Shown here: positions 8,942 through 59,538 of the stretch, in pieces
How the letters are laid out: each line of letters begins with the position of its first letter
Numbering within the stretch: position 1 is the stretch's first letter
IMG/VR virus record: IMGVR_UViG_3300028197_000003
Location: 32,001-96,000 of that record
DNA from: a virus
DNA length: 64,000 bases
Direction: 5' to 3' (one strand)
Position numbers and translations under genes: made by a program
The notes under the pieces: generated by a model
What the model was told of the DNA's origin: nothing
What the model saw: only the letters and a program-made list of their open reading frames with translations
The model's database searches: none

Positions 8942-9474
8942 TGGAGTCATATTTTGGCGGCATTTGGAAGGATGACTATGTTGGTCAACTGAAGCACTCA
9001 GGAGACGCTGTAGTCGATTACATCAATAAGTTATCTCCATCTAGTGTATTGGATGTAGGATGCGGTTACAACCGCCTCAAGGACCGTGTACCGGGGTTAG
9101 TTGGTATTGATCCATATAACAAAGAGGCACACTTACATATGTCTCTGGAGGAATACTATGAGTATGAATTTCCACCTGCTGATGTTGTTCTCTGTCTAGG
9201 ATCAATCAACTTCGGAACTGAAGAAGATATTGATAAACAGATTAGTATGTTAGATAAATTGTTTCTAAAAGATATTATTTTTAGGGTCAATCCAGGTATT
9301 GCTCATGATTGGGCAAATACTAATATTGATCAGATACAATGGTATGATTGGAACATTGAAAAGATAAATAAAATTACTGAAGAATACCAATACAATTTGA
9401 TATCACTGAAAGAAGAAACTACTTCTCAAGGACATCTAAGGTATTTTTTTCATTATGCTAAATACTCACGTTGA
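8941..9474 (+). CDS. Class I SAM-dependent methyltransferase
   Basis: Motif I VLDVGCG, acidic GIDP, DVVLCLGSI. Confidence 0.75.
   Translation: MESYFGGIWKDDYVGQLKHSGDAVVDYINKLSPSSVLDVGCGYNRLKDRVPGLVGIDPYNKEAHLHMSLEEYYEYEFPPADVVLCLGSINFGTEEDIDKQISMLDKLFLKDIIFRVNPGIAHDWANTNIDQIQWYDWNIEKINKITEEYQYNLISLKEETTSQGHLRYFFHYAKYSR
9459..9464 (+). promoter_or_regulatory. Late promoter TAAATA for the ferritin-like gene
   Basis: 23 nt before ATG 9488; purine-rich GAAAGGAA RBS between them. Confidence 0.65.
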
Positions 9475-9487
9475 AAGGAAATCCAAA

Positions 9488-10162
9488 ATGCTTTCTGGAA
9501 CCGATTTCGTAAAGAAAATCAAGGAAGGTAATAGGGAGCTGTTTGAGGCTTCCCGTAGTAACGTCCGTCGTTTCTTCGCTTCTGCCCCTAGCGAGGAGTA
9601 CCTCGTCGAGCACTTCCGTGGCCGCATGGTCAACGAAGCACAAAACATGTATGCGATTGCTGGTCAAGTAGCATCTGCCGACCCTAGCACCGACGTTCGC
9701 GACCTGGAGCTTCTTAGCAAGCAGGCATTGGACGAAGCAAAGCACTTCCGCATGGTCAAGGAAGTCATCGAGCACATCACTGGCGAAGAACTAGACGTTG
9801 CTGCTGCTTTCGCTGCTGAAGCAGGTAAGCCTCAAGCAAAGGGTGCTTCCCTGCTTGAGAAGTACGAAGCTGCTCAAGATCCTGCTGCCCTCGCTGCCTA
9901 TCAGCTCGTTGCTGAAGGTCGTGCACAAGCAGTCTGGTCTGAAATGGCCGAGTGTGTTGAAGATTCGTTTATCTCCACCCGCTACGCCTCCATTGCTAAG
10001 GATGAAGGTTTCCACAGCAACCTCGGCGGACGCTCACTGAGCCGTCTGGTTGAAGGTAGTGTGGAACTTCAAGATCGCGTTCTTGCTCTTGTCGAGCGTA
10101 TGCGTTCTGATCTTCTGGAGATCTCCCGCCAGAACACGGCTACACCTCTTGCCGTTGTTTGA
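9488..10162 (+). CDS. Ferritin-like di-iron carboxylate protein
   Basis: E-x32-ExxH (NE...DEAKH) and E-x29-ExxH (AE...DEGFH); predicted all-helical; 224 aa. Confidence 0.8.
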   Translation: MLSGTDFVKKIKEGNRELFEASRSNVRRFFASAPSEEYLVEHFRGRMVNEAQNMYAIAGQVASADPSTDVRDLELLSKQALDEAKHFRMVKEVIEHITGEELDVAAAFAAEAGKPQAKGASLLEKYEAAQDPAALAAYQLVAEGRAQAVWSEMAECVEDSFISTRYASIAKDEGFHSNLGGRSLSRLVEGSVELQDRVLALVERMRSDLLEISRQNTATPLAVV

Positions 10163-10775
10163 AGGTCTGACGACCTTCTCTAATAGTCTCGTCTAACCAA
10201 TGGTCTTTGACGGGACTTACATATTTTCCGTTGGCATCGCCGGTTATAAACTGGTCGATGCCATTGGTCGTTACAGGGAACTTTAGAATCTCCCCACAGT
10301 ATTTGATATAGTCTTCCTTCCACAAGAAAAAAGATTCGTGAGATAGGAAATGTGTTTCAATATATGGATCCTCTAAGAGGGATTTATAGTAACCTTTGGC
10401 AATCGGTAGGGTTACTTCTCCACCAACTCTTTCTTGTTGAAGTGCATTTATATTTTGATCTCTTGTAATAATTGCCACTACAGGTGTGTAACCAAGATGC
10501 ATTGCTTGATGACAAACTGCTGAAATCTTAGGTACCTGTCTGACACCATCATAGAAGAAAGGAACACTTACATTTGCTAGAAAAAAATCTCCCTCAGGAA
10601 ACTCTAACAACTCAGGATATACCCAATACTTGGCAAATGGTTCCTCATCAGATGGAACCCAGTAATTATCTTTGAGAGAATCCCACCCTACAACTTCTGG
10701 GTGCAAACTAAATATTCTTGCAAATAGGTGATTGCCTGATCCTTGTGGTCCGGTTGTGATAAGGAGTCTTTTCAT
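10140..10775 (-). CDS. Sulfotransferase/P-loop-fold protein, family B
   Basis: TGPQGSGNH loop and ITRDQN motif; paralog of 15190-15870. Confidence 0.6.
   Translation of the reverse strand: MKRLLITTGPQGSGNHLFARIFSLHPEVVGWDSLKDNYWVPSDEEPFAKYWVYPELLEFPEGDFFLANVSVPFFYDGVRQVPKISAVCHQAMHLGYTPVVAIITRDQNINALQQERVGGEVTLPIAKGYYKSLLEDPYIETHFLSHESFFLWKEDYIKYCGEILKFPVTTNGIDQFITGDANGKYVSPVKDHWLDETIREGRQTFKQRQEV
10709..10714 (+). promoter_or_regulatory. Late promoter TAAATA inside the opposite-strand gene
   Basis: About 60 nt before ATG 10774; AAGGAG RBS at 10761-10766. Confidence 0.5.
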
Positions 10776-11913
10776 GAGTAAACCGAAGTTTATATTTTTC
10801 TTAGGAGCATCATTTTCAGCAACAACTCCGCTGTATAAAATGCTTCGTAATCACATTACGAGTGGATTTGCTAAAGAACATCATTTGGCAGAAGTAGCAG
10901 AGATAGCGCAACAAATAAGATCTGGAATTTATACACCGACCGATAGAGATAATTTTCCCTTTTTATCAAGTTCAAAAAAATCTTCTACCTCATCATGGGT
11001 CGGTGGGGAAGAGTATAATGAAAAGTTATTGAGATGTAAAAAGAAGATTGATTGCGCCCAAAATTTTGGTACTAGTTCTGGTGAGATTATAACAGATTAT
11101 CCGGATTTTAGTAATTGGTCAATACAAAAATATGTTGATTACTACAAAAAATTGTGGGACAATAGAGGGGATGGTAGAGATGTATTAGTTGATTGGTCTA
11201 ATAGTAATGGTCGTTTAGATTATAATTTTATAAAAAATTTACTGGAAGCATTGAAGCAAGAGTTTGATGTCAGTGCTCTGATTATATGTAGAGACCCTGT
11301 GAGAAGGGCATGGTCTTGGTTGAACTATGCATGGAATGATTATTCAAAAGTTTATATGAAAGATCGTTACACTAATATTGACTCTGCCGCCAAAGCAGAA
11401 TTTGCAAAAATAAAACCATATCATCCACTCATTGAAAGTGTAGAAAAATCGTGTCCTGTGCACGTTTTGGTTATGGAAAAAGTATGGGAGGGTAATTCTT
11501 TTCTATCTAAAGAAGAGTCTCAAATAATTACTCAGTTGATTGGGAAACCTGACTTTGCCCCAAACCTATACTGTCCCGATAGAGGAAACAAAGCAATCCG
11601 TTATAAACATCAAAAAGACCAGTGGTGTTCTGATCATTTCAATATGTCAGATAAACAATACTATGAGTACAAAAATATTATGATTGATCATTATGATGGA
11701 TGGAAAGGAGATCTTCCTGAGGGGTGGGGATCTCCAATGGATTATGAAACAAACTGTTCCTTACCCATAGATGGCATAGAAGAACAGTACATCAAACCTG
11801 GAACTTATCGTAAGAGTGATGGAAAATTATATGTAGACTTTGATGGTTATGATGAATTATATAACGTTGAATATGTTGACCCATATTTTAGTGATAAATT
11901 TTCCAACCCATAA
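10774..11913 (+). CDS. Sulfotransferase-like protein, family A
   Basis: LGASFSATTPL (5'-PSB-like loop) and RDPVRRAWS (3'-PB-like); start MSKPKF chosen by alignment to paralogs. Confidence 0.65.
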   Translation: MSKPKFIFFLGASFSATTPLYKMLRNHITSGFAKEHHLAEVAEIAQQIRSGIYTPTDRDNFPFLSSSKKSSTSSWVGGEEYNEKLLRCKKKIDCAQNFGTSSGEIITDYPDFSNWSIQKYVDYYKKLWDNRGDGRDVLVDWSNSNGRLDYNFIKNLLEALKQEFDVSALIICRDPVRRAWSWLNYAWNDYSKVYMKDRYTNIDSAAKAEFAKIKPYHPLIESVEKSCPVHVLVMEKVWEGNSFLSKEESQIITQLIGKPDFAPNLYCPDRGNKAIRYKHQKDQWCSDHFNMSDKQYYEYKNIMIDHYDGWKGDLPEGWGSPMDYETNCSLPIDGIEEQYIKPGTYRKSDGKLYVDFDGYDELYNVEYVDPYFSDKFSNP

Positions 11914-11938
11914 AAAAAGGCAGGCGTTATGCCTGCCT
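11912..11938 (-). terminator. Intrinsic terminator for the DctP-like gene, possibly bidirectional
   Basis: AGGCAGGC-gttat-GCCTGCCT with an A7 tract on + (U tract on -). Confidence 0.8.
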
Positions 11939-11957
11939 ATAAAATCAAAACAGAAGT

Positions 11958-12914
11958 TTACTCTTCTGCATCGGTACCGTAGGCACGAATACGATCAGCA
12001 ACTCCCGCAGGAAGAGAAATCGTATCATACAATCCAGCAGTAGCTTGCTTGAATGCAGTACGCTCATCAGTAGTCATTTTGTTGACGGTAATTCCTTCAT
12101 TCGTGCACTTGACCTCAAGGTCAAACATCTCATCAACAGACCATTCTTGTTCCGCATCTGCGGTAACAATTGCTGCGTTTGCAATTTTGCCACGAAGTCC
12201 AGAATCTTTATCCAAAGACTTCCAAAAATCTTTCCGACAAACAATAGCTGCAACATTCATAGAATGTCGTGTATCATTGAGAGTCTTCATGACATCATCG
12301 CCTTCATTGGCGAAGAACTGAGTGTAGTTAGCATCTGCACCAGCAACGGTGCCATCTGTGACGGCTTGTTTGATCTGCTCTACTTCAAGAACAACAGGAG
12401 TAGCACCAATTGCTTCAAAAGTTTTTTTAGCAATTTCGTTGTCGTCGCATCGAATGGAAACCCCTAACAGATCATCGGTTGTATCGATTTCTTTAGTAGC
12501 AGGAATCATATTGTATCCACCAGCAAAAGTATATCCCAGACCCCTAACTACAGTATCTTCACGTCCCCATAGTCCTTTCAAAAGCTCAATTCCAACTTGA
12601 CCCGCTAAGGCGTTACTTGCCTCAACATAACTACTAAACAAATAAGGCATATCAAGAACTCTCAAATCTGAGTTGAGTTCAGCCAACTTGGACGTATATA
12701 TCTGACACATATCCAACTTACCCTCTCTAATGAGAGTAATAAAATCATTCCTGGTAACTGCTACACCTTCATTGTACTTCGTAGCAAACTCTGATAGTGT
12801 AAGAATTTCAACTTCAAATTCCCCAGGAGCAAGGATCTCAATTTCAGTAGCAAACTTCTCAGCAGTACGACGGAAAAGTTCAATAGGTTCATGTACCCAA
12901 CGTACTTTTTTCAT
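11958..12914 (-). CDS. dctP: TRAP-transporter substrate-binding (DctP-family) protein without signal peptide
   Basis: LDMPYLF, DLLGVSIR, FEAIGATPV, GTVAGAD, DTRH motifs typical of DctP; no hydrophobic N-terminal leader. Confidence 0.8.
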   Translation of the reverse strand: MKKVRWVHEPIELFRRTAEKFATEIEILAPGEFEVEILTLSEFATKYNEGVAVTRNDFITLIREGKLDMCQIYTSKLAELNSDLRVLDMPYLFSSYVEASNALAGQVGIELLKGLWGREDTVVRGLGYTFAGGYNMIPATKEIDTTDDLLGVSIRCDDNEIAKKTFEAIGATPVVLEVEQIKQAVTDGTVAGADANYTQFFANEGDDVMKTLNDTRHSMNVAAIVCRKDFWKSLDKDSGLRGKIANAAIVTADAEQEWSVDEMFDLEVKCTNEGITVNKMTTDERTAFKQATAGLYDTISLPAGVADRIRAYGTDAEE

Positions 12915-12941
12915 GCCTTATTGAGTTATGGTTCTATACTA

Positions 12942-12947
12942 TATTTA
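12942..12947 (-). promoter_or_regulatory. Late promoter TAAATA on the minus strand
   Basis: tattta on +, 27 nt upstream of the DctP-like ATG. Confidence 0.65.
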
Positions 12948-12991
12948 TTGTAATGTAACTGTTCCTAAATTATTATGATGCTTGTGAAAGG

Positions 12992-14038
12992 ATGAAACCT
13001 AAATTTATTTTGTTTCTTGGAGTAGGTTGGTCAGCAACAACTCCACTGTTTGCATCTATCAAAGAACATTTACTCTACGGCATTGAGAAGGAATGGTTTT
13101 ATCCCCAGATGTTGTTTGAAAGGAATTTTTACAAGTTCACAAATGATCATTTATGGAGAAAATCTTTAGATGAACTCAAGGTAAGAATAAGAAAATTTAG
13201 AGAGGGTGAGATACAGTTTCATCATGTGTCGAAGCACGATGTGTCAGAAAAAGCATTGAGTATCATAGAGCATCATGATCCTACTATCGAGAGATATATT
13301 GATTTTTACAAATGTCTCTGGGAAGAAGGGGTAAGTTACGATAAGAAGGCACTTGCAGATTTTTCAAATACAAATAGTGAATGTTTCTTTGTTGATAAAG
13401 GAATTCGATGGTATAGAAACTTTGTATCAGAATTGGATAAACATTTTGATGTTATTCAAGTTGCAATTTTTAGAGATCCAGTTAGGAGGTTTTTCTCAAA
13501 CGAGGTTTGGTTATATGACAACGCCGAGCATCTAGACATTGACACGGGTGGTCAAACTTTAGATCAGTGGTTTGAACATCGTATAGAACATCAGATTCCT
13601 TATGCCAAACTTATCAAGACTGCCATGTCTTGTGGTAAGACTGAATTTTTTGTTATGGAAGACGTATGGGAATCTGATACTGAAACCCAAATTGCTCGAC
13701 TACAAAAACTTTTTGCTGTCGATAGAGTAGAATTATATGACAATGCTTACTGTCCTGATAGAGGATCTAAAGCAATTAGATATAGTAACCTAATAGATCA
13801 ATGGACTAGTGATTCATTTGATATGCCAGATGATTTATATTATAAACTCAAAAAAATGATGAGTTTTCAGTACGAAGATTGGATAAAAATGTATGGCAAA
13901 TTGCCTGAAACTTGGGGCAGTCCTGCAGACTATAAGAAGAATCAGAGTTTACCGATAGGGAGACTACAGCACAAAGAGAACTTTGTTTATCCAGAGTTTT
14001 ATGAAGAGATTGATGGTCAAAATTATTGTCATAACTAG
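12992..14038 (+). CDS. Sulfotransferase-like protein, family A
   Basis: LGVGWSATTPL; RDPVRRFFS; YCPDRGSKAIRY. Confidence 0.65.
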   Translation: MKPKFILFLGVGWSATTPLFASIKEHLLYGIEKEWFYPQMLFERNFYKFTNDHLWRKSLDELKVRIRKFREGEIQFHHVSKHDVSEKALSIIEHHDPTIERYIDFYKCLWEEGVSYDKKALADFSNTNSECFFVDKGIRWYRNFVSELDKHFDVIQVAIFRDPVRRFFSNEVWLYDNAEHLDIDTGGQTLDQWFEHRIEHQIPYAKLIKTAMSCGKTEFFVMEDVWESDTETQIARLQKLFAVDRVELYDNAYCPDRGSKAIRYSNLIDQWTSDSFDMPDDLYYKLKKMMSFQYEDWIKMYGKLPETWGSPADYKKNQSLPIGRLQHKENFVYPEFYEEIDGQNYCHN

Positions 14039-14058
14039 TAAAGTGATTGTATAAAAAA

Positions 14059-15189
14059 ATGAAACCTAAATTTATACTATTTGTTGGTTATGGATGGGCA
14101 GCAACAACTCCATTATTCAATTCCCTAAAAGAACATCTACTTTTTGGTACTCAAAAAGAGATGCATTATTTTGAATTGATCTATAAAAAACAATATTACA
14201 AAGATCCTAAAAACTGGGGGGAAGGAGCCAAAGACCGTAGGGGATGGGAGAAAACTTTTGAATTACATTTAGCACGTGTCAAACAGACCAGGTATGGTGA
14301 AGATAATTATGATCAAAATATTTTTGTGCCAGATAAAGCATTTGATATTCTTGAAGATCCTAATACTTGTATAGAAAACTATATCAATTTTTATAAATCC
14401 ATTTGGGAAAAACATGCAGATGAGGGCAAGATACTTGCAGATTGGTCAAACTCAAATATTCTTCCGATAAACGATAAAACAGTAGGACTGCCTTTGTACA
14501 AAGAGTTTATACAAAGACTACAAGAACATTTTGATGTTACTCAAGTAGGAATTTTTAGAGATCCAGTTAGACGACTATTTTCAGAACATGTTTGGCATTG
14601 GGACAATGCAGATCTCCTTAGAATTGATAAAGGTTTACATCATACCGTAGAAACTTACTTAGAATTATATGCAAAAAAAGTTTTACCTTACAGTGATATT
14701 ATAGATGTCACTAGAAAATATGGTAAAACTGAATTTTTTGTTATGGAAGATATATGGGAGAACGATACTAAAAATCAACTTAGTCGATTAGAAAATCTTA
14801 TTGGTAAAGATATAAATTTATATGATAATGCTTACTCTCCTGATAGAGGATCTAAAGCAATTAGATATACTCTTTTGATTGATCAATGGAATAGTGATTC
14901 ATTTGATATGCCAGATGATTTATATTATAAACTAAAAAAAATACTTCAGTATCAATATGATTATTGGCCTAAAGTATTTGGTTGTCTTCCTGAGCAGTGG
15001 GGAACCCCTATAGACTACAAGAAAAATCAAAGTTTACCTATAGGAAGAATTGAACACGAAGGTAATTTTGTTCCTGAAGAAAATCGTGAACTAATTGATG
15101 GTGAATATTATTGGAAAGATTTCGATAATACATTTCTGCTTGATGGAATGGATGATTTTTTTACTAAATTTGAGGTTGTAAGTAAGTGA
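14059..15189 (+). CDS. Sulfotransferase-like protein, family A (tandem paralog)
   Basis: VGYGWAATTPL; RDPVRRLFS; ATG at 14059 matches paralog starts. Confidence 0.65.
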   Translation: MKPKFILFVGYGWAATTPLFNSLKEHLLFGTQKEMHYFELIYKKQYYKDPKNWGEGAKDRRGWEKTFELHLARVKQTRYGEDNYDQNIFVPDKAFDILEDPNTCIENYINFYKSIWEKHADEGKILADWSNSNILPINDKTVGLPLYKEFIQRLQEHFDVTQVGIFRDPVRRLFSEHVWHWDNADLLRIDKGLHHTVETYLELYAKKVLPYSDIIDVTRKYGKTEFFVMEDIWENDTKNQLSRLENLIGKDINLYDNAYSPDRGSKAIRYTLLIDQWNSDSFDMPDDLYYKLKKILQYQYDYWPKVFGCLPEQWGTPIDYKKNQSLPIGRIEHEGNFVPEENRELIDGEYYWKDFDNTFLLDGMDDFFTKFEVVSK

Positions 15190-15870
15190 TCAACAACACT
15201 TAGATGGTTTTTCTGGTTGTGGTCCTGTAGGTCCTTCAGTAAAAGGATCTAATGGAGCAGGAATTCCAGTTTTATTGCAGTCATCCAAAGGATTGTTTGC
15301 AACATATTGAATATACTTGTCGTTAGCATCTCGTTTCAAAATTTCATCTACACGTTTGTCATACCATGCAACTGGGATACCAATGTCTAGGTGTTTTAGA
15401 TACTCTTCTTTATAGAGATATAAAAGTTCGTAACTAAGAAAGGTTGGGTTGGGGAATTTTGACATCTGATCCAAGAAATACTTGGTGGTTAGTTCGCCCC
15501 TCAACCGCTGTTGTTGATTACGAAGTATGTTTTGATCACGACCAATTACAACTATTTTAGTTTTGATCCCCATATTTTCGGCAGACTTGCAAAACTGCAA
15601 TACGTTTGGACACCAATGGGTCCCTTTTTCTTTGATGCCGAGGGGGACACTAATAGAGGTAAAGTAATATTCCGACTGAGACCAATCGAAAGATTGCAGT
15701 TTATTGGGGTCTCTCCAATATTCTGCAAAAGGTTCTGCAAATCTATGTGCTTCCCAATAATTGTTCAGCAAAGATTTCCACCCATAGACATCATCGTGCA
15801 ATGAAAAGATTTTTGACCATAGATGGTTTCCCGATCCTTGAGGCCCAGTTAGTACAACGAGTGTCTTCAT
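15190..15870 (-). CDS. Sulfotransferase/P-loop-fold protein, family B
   Basis: TGPQGSGNH; IGRDQN; paralog of 10140-10775. Confidence 0.6.
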   Translation of the reverse strand: MKTLVVLTGPQGSGNHLWSKIFSLHDDVYGWKSLLNNYWEAHRFAEPFAEYWRDPNKLQSFDWSQSEYYFTSISVPLGIKEKGTHWCPNVLQFCKSAENMGIKTKIVVIGRDQNILRNQQQRLRGELTTKYFLDQMSKFPNPTFLSYELLYLYKEEYLKHLDIGIPVAWYDKRVDEILKRDANDKYIQYVANNPLDDCNKTGIPAPLDPFTEGPTGPQPEKPSKCC

Positions 15871-15891
15871 AATATAGTAACCTTCATACTA

Positions 15892-15900
15892 ATTATAACA
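15892..15900 (-). promoter_or_regulatory. Extended -10 sigma70-type promoter TGTTATAAT
   Basis: Perfect TGnTATAAT 21 nt before ATG 15870. Confidence 0.65.
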
Positions 15901-15902
15901 CC

Positions 15903-15908
15903 TAAATA
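15903..15908 (+). promoter_or_regulatory. Late promoter TAAATA
   Basis: Upstream of fibre-like gene 15973. Confidence 0.7.
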
Positions 15909-15972
15909 CTCCTATGCGAGAGTATATACTCTCAGTATCTAACTAGATGATCGCTACATAGCGACTACGTGA

Positions 15973-17133
15973 ATGTCATCTCCAAATATTAGGGTCAAAC
16001 GCTCAGCGATTGCTGGCAAGGTCCCACACTATCCAAACAGCCTAGAACTTGGCGAATTTGCGATCAACACAGCGGACGGCAAAGTCTTTATTGCCGCTGG
16101 TGTTGGAGCAGGTGTTACTGTACGCGAAGTTGGTATAAGCACCGGCAAGATTCTTAGTGGTATCGCTACGATTACCACGCTTGAAGCAACAAATTTTAGT
16201 GTAAGTAATACTATCGTTGGTATTTCCAGCGGTGCGAACAAGGTAGATACTGCAACTGACGGTGGTAACCAATGGCACCACGTTGGATTTTTAGATAATA
16301 GAACTGGATATCAAAAAATAAAGACTAACGGTCTTACTTACAACCCTAACACTGGCAAACTCTATGCTGGTATTGGTAGTTTTGGTAAGGTTAGTGGAGA
16401 AGCAACGGTTTCTCAACTAGTAGTCACTGGAGTAACCACTGTATCCACGATCAATGCTGATGCATTTGTTGGTGATGGATCTGCTCTTACTAACATTGGT
16501 GCTGCTACATCTATTTCATCTCAAGTTACAACCGCTACTCAAGGTCAGACCGCATTTACATCACCTGGTGCTCACAATGATGGAACTAAACAACTTACTG
16601 TAGAAGCATATATCAACGGTGTTCGCCAACGTAAAGATACTGACTTCAGTGTCTCATCTACAAGCACAGTAACCCTTAGTAGTGGTGCCAAGGTAGGTGA
16701 TGAGGTTCAAATTCAAGTTCATTATGGACATACTCTCGATCAAGAATCTTTTACTGCAACACAAGGTCAAACAGTATTTACAATCTCAGGTGATTTTGCT
16801 GCACAAAAAAACTTCAAAGTATTTTTGAATGGTATAAAATTACGTAAAACTACAGACTATACTACCGGTGCATCTATTGTCCTTGTGACCGGATGTAAAG
16901 TGGGAGACGAAGTTGATATATGTGGAGATCTTTCAGAAGATCAATATACTGCAACTGAAGGACAAACAACATTTATTCCAAGCGATACAAATATTTCTAC
17001 TAAAAACGCTCAAGTATATCTAAATGGGGTTTTACTACGAGCAGTAGATTGGTCATTTGGAGATACATCTATATCAATTACTAATGGCACAACTGTAGGT
17101 GACGAGATAGATGTCGTTGTAAGACGTAACTAA
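15973..17133 (+). CDS. Tail-fibre-like structural protein with three C-terminal repeat domains
   Basis: N-terminal IRVKRS...GEFAINTADGKVF; TAT(Q/E)GQT...(Y/F)xNG...VGDE repeated three times. Confidence 0.7.
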   Translation: MSSPNIRVKRSAIAGKVPHYPNSLELGEFAINTADGKVFIAAGVGAGVTVREVGISTGKILSGIATITTLEATNFSVSNTIVGISSGANKVDTATDGGNQWHHVGFLDNRTGYQKIKTNGLTYNPNTGKLYAGIGSFGKVSGEATVSQLVVTGVTTVSTINADAFVGDGSALTNIGAATSISSQVTTATQGQTAFTSPGAHNDGTKQLTVEAYINGVRQRKDTDFSVSSTSTVTLSSGAKVGDEVQIQVHYGHTLDQESFTATQGQTVFTISGDFAAQKNFKVFLNGIKLRKTTDYTTGASIVLVTGCKVGDEVDICGDLSEDQYTATEGQTTFIPSDTNISTKNAQVYLNGVLLRAVDWSFGDTSISITNGTTVGDEIDVVVRRN

Positions 17134-57370: not shown

Positions 57371-57762
57371 ATTTTTCTAGTTACCAACACTTTGTAAACA
57401 CAGTGACAAGTAAAGAATCACAAGATTCTGATGCTTTCATCTATCGTTTGCAAGAACTTGGTAGCGAAATTCCAATCCAACGTCTTCTAACTGCTGCTGT
57501 AGGCATCTCTGCTGAAGGTGGTGAGTTTACGGAGATCGTAAAGAAAATGATTTTCCAAGGCAAACCTGCTAATGAGGAAAACTTGTACCACCTAAAGCGG
57601 GAATTGGGTGATGTAATGTGGTATGTGGCACAAGCATGCATGGCACTGGACGTGGACATGAATGAAGTGCTAGATATGAATATCAAAAAACTGGAATCCC
57701 GTTTCCCCGAGGGTACTTTCAGTGAGTTCTATTCAGAGAATCGTAAAGATGGAGACATCTAA
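57361..57762 (+). CDS. mazG: MazG-family nucleotide pyrophosphohydrolase
   Basis: EGGEFTEIVKK; ELGDVMWY; KLESRFP. Confidence 0.93.
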   Translation: MGVDFSSYQHFVNTVTSKESQDSDAFIYRLQELGSEIPIQRLLTAAVGISAEGGEFTEIVKKMIFQGKPANEENLYHLKRELGDVMWYVAQACMALDVDMNEVLDMNIKKLESRFPEGTFSEFYSENRKDGDI

Positions 57763-58438
57763 TCTTTGCATAACCTGCATCAAAATTGGAGACAAATTTG
57801 ATGCAGGTTATGTGAACAAACTCTATGATATGGTGCATCGTCAGATTGATGTACCATTTTTTTGTTTTACTGATAACCCTAGTGGCATCAAAGAAGGTGT
57901 TACTGTGGTTGAGATTGATGTTACTGAATATTCTCAATGGGAGAATTGGTGGCCAGCATGGTGGAAGATCAATATGTTTGTCCGCCCTGAAATACAGGAC
58001 TTCAAACGTAAAATCTTCTTTGATTTGGATGTGATTATCCATGGAGATCTTAGTAAAATTTATGAATTCAATAGTCCATTTGCTTTGGTCTATTCTTCTT
58101 GGAAAGGATTACAATTCCAAGTCAAAAACCCAACCAAATCGATGTTCAATTCCAGTGTAATTGCATGGGATGATGCAAAGCACATTTATGATCATTGGAT
58201 GCAGGATGCTAAGGGATTCGTTGCCAAGTATGCTGGAACTGATGACTTCTATCATAACGAAAAGATCAAAAGATATCGTCTCCCACCTATCATCTACTCA
58301 TATAGGGATGGTTGTATTCCAGGGCAACAAAATTGTTTAGAATTTAGACCATGGATGGGACTTGCTATTCTCCATCAGCACCCTAAGAACCATGAACTAG
58401 ACCCAAATATACATATTATTGCTAGGTATTGGGGATAG
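57749..58438 (+). CDS. Glycosyltransferase-like protein (GT-A fold)
   Basis: KIGDKF..GYV; WWKINMF; FFDLDVII (DxD); HQHPKNH. Confidence 0.7.
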   Translation: METSNLCITCIKIGDKFDAGYVNKLYDMVHRQIDVPFFCFTDNPSGIKEGVTVVEIDVTEYSQWENWWPAWWKINMFVRPEIQDFKRKIFFDLDVIIHGDLSKIYEFNSPFALVYSSWKGLQFQVKNPTKSMFNSSVIAWDDAKHIYDHWMQDAKGFVAKYAGTDDFYHNEKIKRYRLPPIIYSYRDGCIPGQQNCLEFRPWMGLAILHQHPKNHELDPNIHIIARYWG

Positions 58439-58440
58439 TA

Positions 58441-59538
58441 ATGGCAAAGATTGATCCAAAGCATCTCAAGAAATATACTGTCAAGTGGATTCTTTCTAAT
58501 GAACCACTTGATTTTTTTATGAGAATTGCTAAGTCATTCGAGCATCATATGGATCGCCGCATGCCTGGTAGAGTCAATTTTGAAATTATGTCTGCTCAAG
58601 AGTATGCAGTCAAGTATAATGATGGAGTTGAGATTGATCATGATGATGTGCTTAGATTGTTGAAAGAAAATGAGATCCAACTAGCAGATTTTCCTGCACC
58701 TTTGTTTGCACAAAAGATCAAAGAGCGTTATCAGAATCGTCAAACTAGGGGGAAAGATTTAGATTTTGTTGAAAGTGATTGGTCAAGCATTGAAATGCCA
58801 TTTCTTTTTAGAAATGAAACGCATGCCACTGCGTTTATGCAGTCCCATATGGGTGAACAACTTCTTTACTATCGTAATCAGTTGAAAGTAAAACCTATGG
58901 CAATGGTGTCTTGGGGTGGATCTAAATTGATTGCTGGGGACAAACCCTATATGTCACCTGAGGATTTTGAAGGTAGTAAAGTTAGTCTCCAATACCATAC
59001 TGCAGTAGCAGAGAAAATTTTTGAGTCTTTGGGTGCTGAGGTCACTGATTCTGACGCTGATGCATATGAGACAGACATGCCCTCCTTTGATATGTCTAAG
59101 AAGGTGGTTACTGAACTGAATCACAGCATCAATACTAATATTATCCTTGCATCTCATGAGTTCTGGAGGAATGTAATCAAGTGTGAGTGTGATTACAGAG
59201 AGCATACTAAAGAAGAAGAGGACGGTTGTCTAAGAAAACAATTGAAACGTGCATGCAATGAAGCAACACGTGATAGAGACGTGTGGAATGATGAAATGAC
59301 TGCTAAGTTTAGGCAAGAATGTGAGTCAAGAGGCATTGAGTTACATCAGGTATCTGACTCCACTCCTTTCAAAGAAAAGACTGCTTCTGTATATGATCAG
59401 TTTGTAAAATTCTTCTATGACGAACAGTTTATTGACAGTGAAAGTGAGGTTGTCAAGCATGACCTCAGAACAAGAGTCAATGATTTGTCTGACAACAGTA
59501 GAAGTGCTTGGTGTGACGACCTTACTATTGACCAATGA
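58441..59538 (+). CDS. dctP: Second DctP-like substrate-binding protein, no signal peptide
   Basis: IEMPFLF; PEDFEG; FESLGA; shares W..EP..F.R.A..F and KYN.GV with 11958-12914. Confidence 0.7.
   Translation: MAKIDPKHLKKYTVKWILSNEPLDFFMRIAKSFEHHMDRRMPGRVNFEIMSAQEYAVKYNDGVEIDHDDVLRLLKENEIQLADFPAPLFAQKIKERYQNRQTRGKDLDFVESDWSSIEMPFLFRNETHATAFMQSHMGEQLLYYRNQLKVKPMAMVSWGGSKLIAGDKPYMSPEDFEGSKVSLQYHTAVAEKIFESLGAEVTDSDADAYETDMPSFDMSKKVVTELNHSINTNIILASHEFWRNVIKCECDYREHTKEEEDGCLRKQLKRACNEATRDRDVWNDEMTAKFRQECESRGIELHQVSDSTPFKEKTASVYDQFVKFFYDEQFIDSESEVVKHDLRTRVNDLSDNSRSAWCDDLTIDQ

Follow-up and report, generated by a model that had tools for sequence, protein, structure and literature searches.

TRAP substrate-binding proteins are textbook parts of periplasmic transporters, and a phage gene that encodes one with neither an export signal nor transporter genes raises the question of what such a protein would do inside an infected cell. 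We examined a gene of this kind, hereafter DctP-1, in a 64,000-nt stretch of DNA (the window) that comprises bases 32001-96000 of a 192,351-bp IMG/VR virus record rated 100% complete by CheckV. The source phage is a marine T4-like cyanomyovirus whose gp43 shares 68% identity with that of Synechococcus phage S-SM2 and which also encodes UvsX, gp41, MazG, psbA, and psbD. The gene and the residue on which much of its interpretation turns are located as follows.

11958..12914, minus strand: DctP-1, a leaderless DctP-family coding sequence of 318 aa, the orphan copy (ORF, Pfam match, and AF2 model)
12450..12452, minus strand: codon for Arg155, which corresponds to SiaP Arg147 (carboxylate clamp) and aligns with the GLKIR Arg of 4p47, 4n8y, and 4o94

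DctP-1 was found to match the Pfam DctP family (PF03480; E 2.5e-32), with residues 17-298 covering profile positions 14-281 of 286, and the NCBIfam model NF037995 at 102 bits against a cut-off of 50. The TIGR00787 model was not reached, as the score of 105.6 bits fell under its cut-off of 175. The sequence also matches dozens of solved TRAP binding proteins, and an AlphaFold2 model built on 45 relatives, with a mean pLDDT of 95.7, aligned in Foldseek with the 4p47, IseP, SiaP, and DctP structures at TM scores of 0.80-0.87. Arg155 lies within GVSIRC and is fixed in all four orphan copies described below. The equivalent clamp Arg has a carboxylate role and is found in 96.8% of DctP-type proteins (PMC4646407).

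An in-frame TAA lies two codons 5' of the DctP-1 ATG, so that no leader is possible, and the alternative of an in-frame leader further upstream was excluded on the same ground. The conserved mature-domain start motif begins at residue 4. P0002 is a homologue at 92% identity that shares the first 26 residues of DctP-1; hydrophobicity over 12-residue stretches peaked at 0.97 within its first 45 residues, compared to about 1.9 or more by the same measure in most leadered relatives. Read together, these features firmly predict DctP-1 to be a soluble cytoplasmic protein. No match to DctQ (PF04290) or DctM (PF06808) was obtained at E<=1 anywhere in the complete 192-kb record. The original prediction of a DctP-family TRAP substrate-binding protein, lacking a signal peptide and DctQ/M and retaining the GVSIRC Arg, was therefore borne out on each of these points, the rest of the genome included.

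The same prediction had assigned the gene its own late promoter and terminator, and two candidate signals flank it.

11911..11938, minus strand: terminator-like hairpin and T-run 3' of DctP-1 (8-bp stem with 6 GC pairs, loop of 5, TTTTTTT)
12942..12949, minus strand: candidate late-promoter-like motif AATAAATA, 27 nt 5' of the ATG, a 7/8 match to T4 TATAAATA

The hairpin itself occupies 11938-11918 on the minus strand and is shared back-to-back with the convergent gene at 10732-11913; two terminator-like sites were found in the region compared to 0.6 expected from shuffles. The exact TATAAATA is absent 5' of DctP-1, and the 7-mer ATAAATA shows no enrichment across the window, with 11 occurrences against 10.1 expected, so the late promoter of DctP-1 is unproven, the 7/8 match being the one indication of late timing. 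The terminator is thus supported by its 8-bp hairpin and T7 run, whereas the late promoter could not be substantiated. It was also noted that the feature as first delimited, ending at 12947, takes in the promoter-like motif, while the ORF ends at 12914.

Contigs from four public RNA libraries, representing three studies, were then compared with positions 9400-16000. One 1038-nt contig of metatranscriptome X10 spans 11880-12917 with 0 mismatches; in the same library 10947-11830 and 12936-14040 are uncovered, and depths differ among the neighboring genes. Shorter pieces of the region, at 90-99% identity, were present in three more RNA runs drawn from two other studies. This gene-shaped patchiness hints weakly at a monocistronic DctP-1 transcript, in contigs that carry no timing, strand, or level and that, although taken from RNA libraries, are compatible with DNA carry-over.

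DctP-1 lies 44 and 77 nt from its neighbor genes, within an island composed of the following features.

9455-10162, plus strand: c44, ferritin-like, with a weak PaaA/PaaC match
10140-10775 and 15190-15870, minus strand: two c31 proteins, 211-226 aa, P-loop-like
10732-11913, 12992-14038, and 14047-15189, plus strand: three c32 paralogues, ~350-390 aa, sulfotransferase-like
15973-17133 and following: tail-fibre-like genes near DctP-1

Neither c32 nor c31 matched Pfam or PHROGs, and a megablast of 12 kb of the island against 50,697 GenBank phage records, a set that may omit records near this genome, gave no match. A link between DctP and sulfotransferase-like genes through the neighbors of locus L003 was considered and dropped, those neighbors being unrelated. 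As separate observations, an RNA contig in run X17 bridges 13806 to 14892 and points to a variant in which two c32 paralogues are fused or recombined, and the c44 contigs had the top mean depth among the contigs mapped in two metatranscriptomes (47 in X10 and 54 in X19).

We found that DctP-1 belongs to a much larger group. A profile search of 1.84 billion representatives recovered 344 relatives at E<1e-30, and a FastTree phylogeny built from 139 full-length representatives placed almost all of the leaderless proteins in one clade, with signal-peptide forms as its sister. At least 514 IMG/VR contigs from uncultured viruses encode leaderless DctP relatives, and the 30 distinct viral copies left by dereplication at 90% all lacked a leader; the cellular members of the clade were mostly from Bdellovibrionota MAGs. 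No clade member was encountered in the 50,697 GenBank phage records (with the same possible omissions), where the best matches for DctP-1 and for the relative P0013, at ~25% identity, were unannotated gut contigs and mislabelled bacterial records. The literature searched on viral and cyanophage DctP, on cytoplasmic orphan TRAP binding proteins, and on DUF2061 yielded no description of a leaderless DctP family. Fusions of DctP to enzymes or structural proteins were absent among proteins of 647-2000 aa, a comparison that bears only weakly on whether such forms exist.

The members of this clade share an N-terminal start motif, (K/R)W-V-x-x-HEP, which is common to DctP-1, and a signature of H98, Y130, S131, R135, T196, R199, T222, and R256, each present in 40-44 of 44 relatives. 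The canonical Arg was kept in only 20 of the 44 clade representatives. Signature residues were mapped to ligand contacts by sequence alignment to solved TRAP proteins, in which R135 precedes R155 by 20 residues, as SiaP Arg127 precedes Arg147, and E194-T195-T196 aligns with the canonical ENP ligand motif. The ligand-contact roles of these positions are presumably those established for SiaP.

The genes adjoining these proteins were clustered in 86 loci. From this examination a recurrent cassette was identified, composed of an 84-aa DUF2061 two-helix membrane protein (40 loci; e.g., L004:7691-7945), DctP, and one or two copies of a ~380-aa protein, P380 (65 loci). A second partner type, c22, carries an SGGADS motif, and a PP-loop gene of either type lies no more than three genes away from 20 of the 30 distinct viral DctPs. 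P380 contains an invariant WSGGIDST PP-loop and has no Pfam or NCBIfam match at cut-off. The P380 model (pLDDT 84) gave Z scores of 13.0 with TsnB9, 12.7 with human asparagine synthetase, 12.1 with beta-lactam synthetase, 10.6 with AsnB, and 10.1 with carbapenam synthetase, compared to 7.1 or less with all other folds. P380 is accordingly modelled as, and predicted to be, a stand-alone AsnB-like PP-loop synthetase, which shares the SGGxDS PP-loop with asparagine synthetase B, beta-lactam and carbapenam synthetase, and TsnB9 (Z 10.1-13.0) but has no glutaminase domain. Its ESM Atlas cluster relatives are 95-100% viral, and no match to it was found in the 50,697 GenBank phage records, subject to the same possible omissions.

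AsnB-type synthetases adenylate a carboxylate, and pairing such an enzyme with a carboxylate-binding fold would therefore make mechanistic sense. The cassette was found in replication, neck, and fibre-side modules and therefore moves as a unit. The nearest structural match of the cassette synthetase is a hydroxamate-forming AsnB relative, and bacterial members of DUF2061 are reported to respond to iron limitation or to be linked to Fur, in Caulobacter (PMC3751524) and in Shewanella (PMC12442407). On these grounds the parent cassette might, in a speculative and quite unlikely reading, make or handle a chelator-like acid amide. The earlier picture of a cytoplasmic protein with its Arg retained, without DctQ/M, and encoded in a terminator-bounded unit still stands, and that unit is seen in RNA libraries; that the usual partners would be AsnB-like and DUF2061 proteins in place of a transporter had not been foreseen.

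Comparable arrangements were noted in three Bdellovibrionota loci. Two of them (L093:2124-7888 and L136:5029-11151) combine a leaderless DctP and a PP-loop gene with a BKACE-type (3-keto-5-aminohexanoate-cleavage-type) enzyme, a short-chain dehydrogenase, and an AMP-forming ligase, the PP-loop gene of L136 being four genes from DctP, and L093 also encodes a 78-aa carrier-like protein and a multi-pass membrane protein. The third (L096:304-6942) holds BKACE, PP-loop, and DctP genes in one locus. By their gene content, these loci look like undescribed cytoplasmic biosynthetic clusters.

Neither partner is present in the phage studied here. P380/c22 had no match anywhere in its genome to the protein or to profile A3, and DUF2061 (PF09834) had none at E<=1. 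The island nevertheless corresponds to one that carries the full cassette: loci L015-L017 have the order c31, DUF2061, DctP, P380, c32, c31, c44, compared to c31, c32, c32, DctP, c32, c31, c44 in the window, where c32 is present in three copies against one in L015. Between the window and L015, identity is 94% for c44, 90% and 85% for the two c31 copies, 91% for a 281-aa protein, and 48% for DctP. Similarly, UvsX, gp41, and c6 share 89-92% identity with those of L003, a further partnered relative, against 48% for DctP-1.

In a maximum-likelihood tree (IQ-TREE), the orphans (the window copy, L008, and L010, with L009 as a fourth copy outside the tree) were nested in a partnered marine clade with L003 and L015 at bootstrap values of 99 and 87. 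The orphan stem measures 0.89 substitutions per site and is 5-13 times longer than those of its sisters (0.07-0.17). It could also represent an unsampled divergent allele acquired by recombination. All eight signature residues were replaced, with H98, Y130, S131, R135, T196, R199, T222, and R256 becoming E, F, A, N, N, Q, A, and Q, and the eight replacements are identical in 4/4 orphan copies. The invariants W6, H8, P10, F21, P90, G108, G132, G133, and E255 were all kept in DctP-1 (9/9), and the ORF is intact in each of the four copies. Variation among the four orphans touches 39 of 318 sites and spares all 26 signature sites (chance ~0.03). Omega spanned 0.17-0.64 in the orphans compared to 0.03-0.19 in partnered DctPs, as estimated from small counts of 17-38 changes per class, and the higher orphan values (0.34-0.64) also fit relaxed constraint. 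Judged by phylogeny, gene order, and alignment, DctP-1 is a derived orphan of the DUF2061/DctP/PP-loop cassette, in which the predicted pocket has been replaced and constraint retained.

DctP-1 is not the only DctP of this phage, as a second leaderless paralogue was detected in the replication module.

58429-59538, plus strand: DctP-2, a leaderless DctP-like paralogue of ~365 aa from the ATG at 58441, identified by its pairwise match to DctP-1

The two proteins share 23% identity (E 5e-29), with GSKVSL opposite GVSIRC, so that DctP-2 has Ser at the clamp-Arg position. DctP-2 lies 3' of MazG and of a 238-aa c5 gene (57722-58438) within the gp43-UvsX-gp41-MazG module. Its ortholog in L003-type relatives is directly 5' of a DUF2061-DctP-P380-c16 block that is missing here, and it shares 46% identity with the L003 ortholog even though its flanks reach 84-92%. 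The same c5-DctP2-c6 order recurs in L155-L159, whose DctP-2 copies are 79-99% identical. A 353-aa gene that follows a leadered bacterial homologue in L007 was also examined and was found not to be a relative of DctP-2.

The history that would best explain these results starts from an ancestral three-gene phage cassette, comprising the DUF2061 membrane protein, a leaderless DctP, and the AsnB-like PP-loop synthetase, in which DctP most likely held or delivered a carboxylic acid for adenylation by the synthetase. The DUF2061 and synthetase genes would have been lost in this phage lineage, and DctP would then have changed rapidly, with polar residues at positions aligned to the ligand contacts of the family being replaced and the fold and Arg155 being kept. 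DctP-1 would now bind, free of any enzyme, a different and probably still anionic small molecule in the infected cyanobacterium, acting as a buffer or, in roles compatible with its orphan state, as a sponge or sensor. Because its partner is lost and its pocket appears rebuilt, binding a small molecule alone inside the infected cell would be its most likely activity; we put the chances at about even that it works in the cytoplasm as a stand-alone binder whose pocket is new and whose small-molecule ligand is also new and probably anionic. That a ligand is bound, what kind it is, and what physiological purpose this serves are points that we infer from these comparisons. A more specific version, in which an enzyme-coupled binder became an autonomous sponge or sensor whose pocket was re-lined after synthetase loss and which sequesters a host metabolite or signal (e.g., a C/N-status acid, a sulfonate, or an immune messenger), appears quite unlikely.

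A gene made useless by the loss of its partners might instead be a decaying remnant that drifts towards loss and has no present function. The absence of both partners from the genome, the disappearance of eight polar signature residues along a long stem branch, and an orphan omega 2-10 times that of partnered copies are all in keeping with such decay. Set against this, all nine structural invariants and an intact ORF persist in four diverged copies after ~0.89 substitutions per site, omega remains <1, the 26 signature sites are invariant among orphans whereas 12% of all sites vary, the AF2 model still reaches a pLDDT of 95.7, and a gene-sized RNA contig is present. A conserved fold, a pocket replaced and then frozen, selection that is relaxed but real, and the presence of RNA together argue for a change of function rather than decay, and we consider the remnant unlikely. 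Another possibility is that DctP-1 has been re-partnered and serves a neighboring enzyme, for instance the flanking c32 paralogues, by binding their substrate or product, which might be a sulfated or sulfonated acid. The c32 genes flank all orphan copies and number three in the window against one in L015, and the conserved Arg can serve sulfonates in TRAP proteins, as in IseP 8t9t, which is among the best fold matches (TM 0.87). However, c32 also adjoins the complete cassette in L015-L017, so its adjacency to DctP-1 may only reflect the island; in addition, the flanking genes, with a promoter region and terminator of their own, run opposite to DctP-1, and the c32 proteins match no family and have no known activity. 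Service to these genes is therefore rated rather improbable.

The remaining alternatives concern host immunity and the virion. As an anti-defence sponge, DctP-1 would sequester a host immune signaling molecule in the manner of the Tad and Acb proteins, and the circumstantial case for this is that it is predicted to be cytoplasmic, partner-less, and likely an anion binder, and is found in RNA libraries and in a variable island. By analogy only, it and the sponges Tad1, Tad2, and Acb2 would all be phage-made cytoplasmic small-molecule binders. We know of no relationship between the DctP fold and the known phage sponges, however, and DctP-1 descends from a metabolic enzyme cassette in a family whose ligands are typically organic acids. 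No PADLOC match was found, in a library that consists of defence rather than anti-defence models. Nucleotide signals are likewise not typical DctP ligands (PMC4646407). The anti-defence role, which the original prediction had raised by analogy, found no support and appears very unlikely. The proposal that DctP-1 is a virion-borne module, extended here to export as a receptor-type module or to assistance of a host TRAP transporter, could draw on the tail-fibre-like genes nearby and on the late-promoter-like motif; it found no support otherwise, as homologues are also encoded in replication and neck modules, fusions to structural domains were absent among proteins of 647-2000 aa, DctP-1 has no leader and the phage no DctQ/M, and the control genome of Synechococcus elongatus gave no DctM match. 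We regard any such virion or transport role as extremely unlikely.

Similar to TRAP substrate-binding proteins (PF03480; H. influenzae SiaP, IseP 8t9t, and Oant_4429 4p47), DctP-1 has the two-lobe fold, the sequence match, and the clamp Arg; it differs from them in having no signal peptide and no DctQ/M, in falling below the TIGR00787 cut-off, and, by alignment, in lacking the second Arg (N135) and carrying Ala at the position of the ENP ligand Asn. With the leaderless DctP cassette it shares its nested place in the clade, the start motif, and the island of L015-L017, whereas both partners are absent genome-wide, 8/8 signature residues are replaced, and the branch is 5-13 times longer. P380, the AsnB-type member of the cassette, is absent from this phage. 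In the literature searched, we found no description of a large phage-centered DctP clade acting inside the cell beside a carboxylate-activating enzyme. The window amounts to a natural experiment: a phage closely related to cassette bearers has lost both the enzyme and the membrane protein, while its binding protein appears re-lined yet kept and expressed. A comparison of the ligands of partnered and orphan forms could reveal which acid these abundant marine phages handle, and also how such a protein takes on a different job.

Two further arrangements of the leaderless genes were observed. Some large phages (L068-L076; e.g., L073, a 244-kb contig) carry three leaderless DctPs and two P380 genes, interleaved with c43 genes of ~212-240 aa. 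On a small contig from a Polynucleobacter MAG bin (L113:3500-6936), a radical SAM/SPASM maturase-like gene lies between the PP-loop gene and a leaderless DctP.
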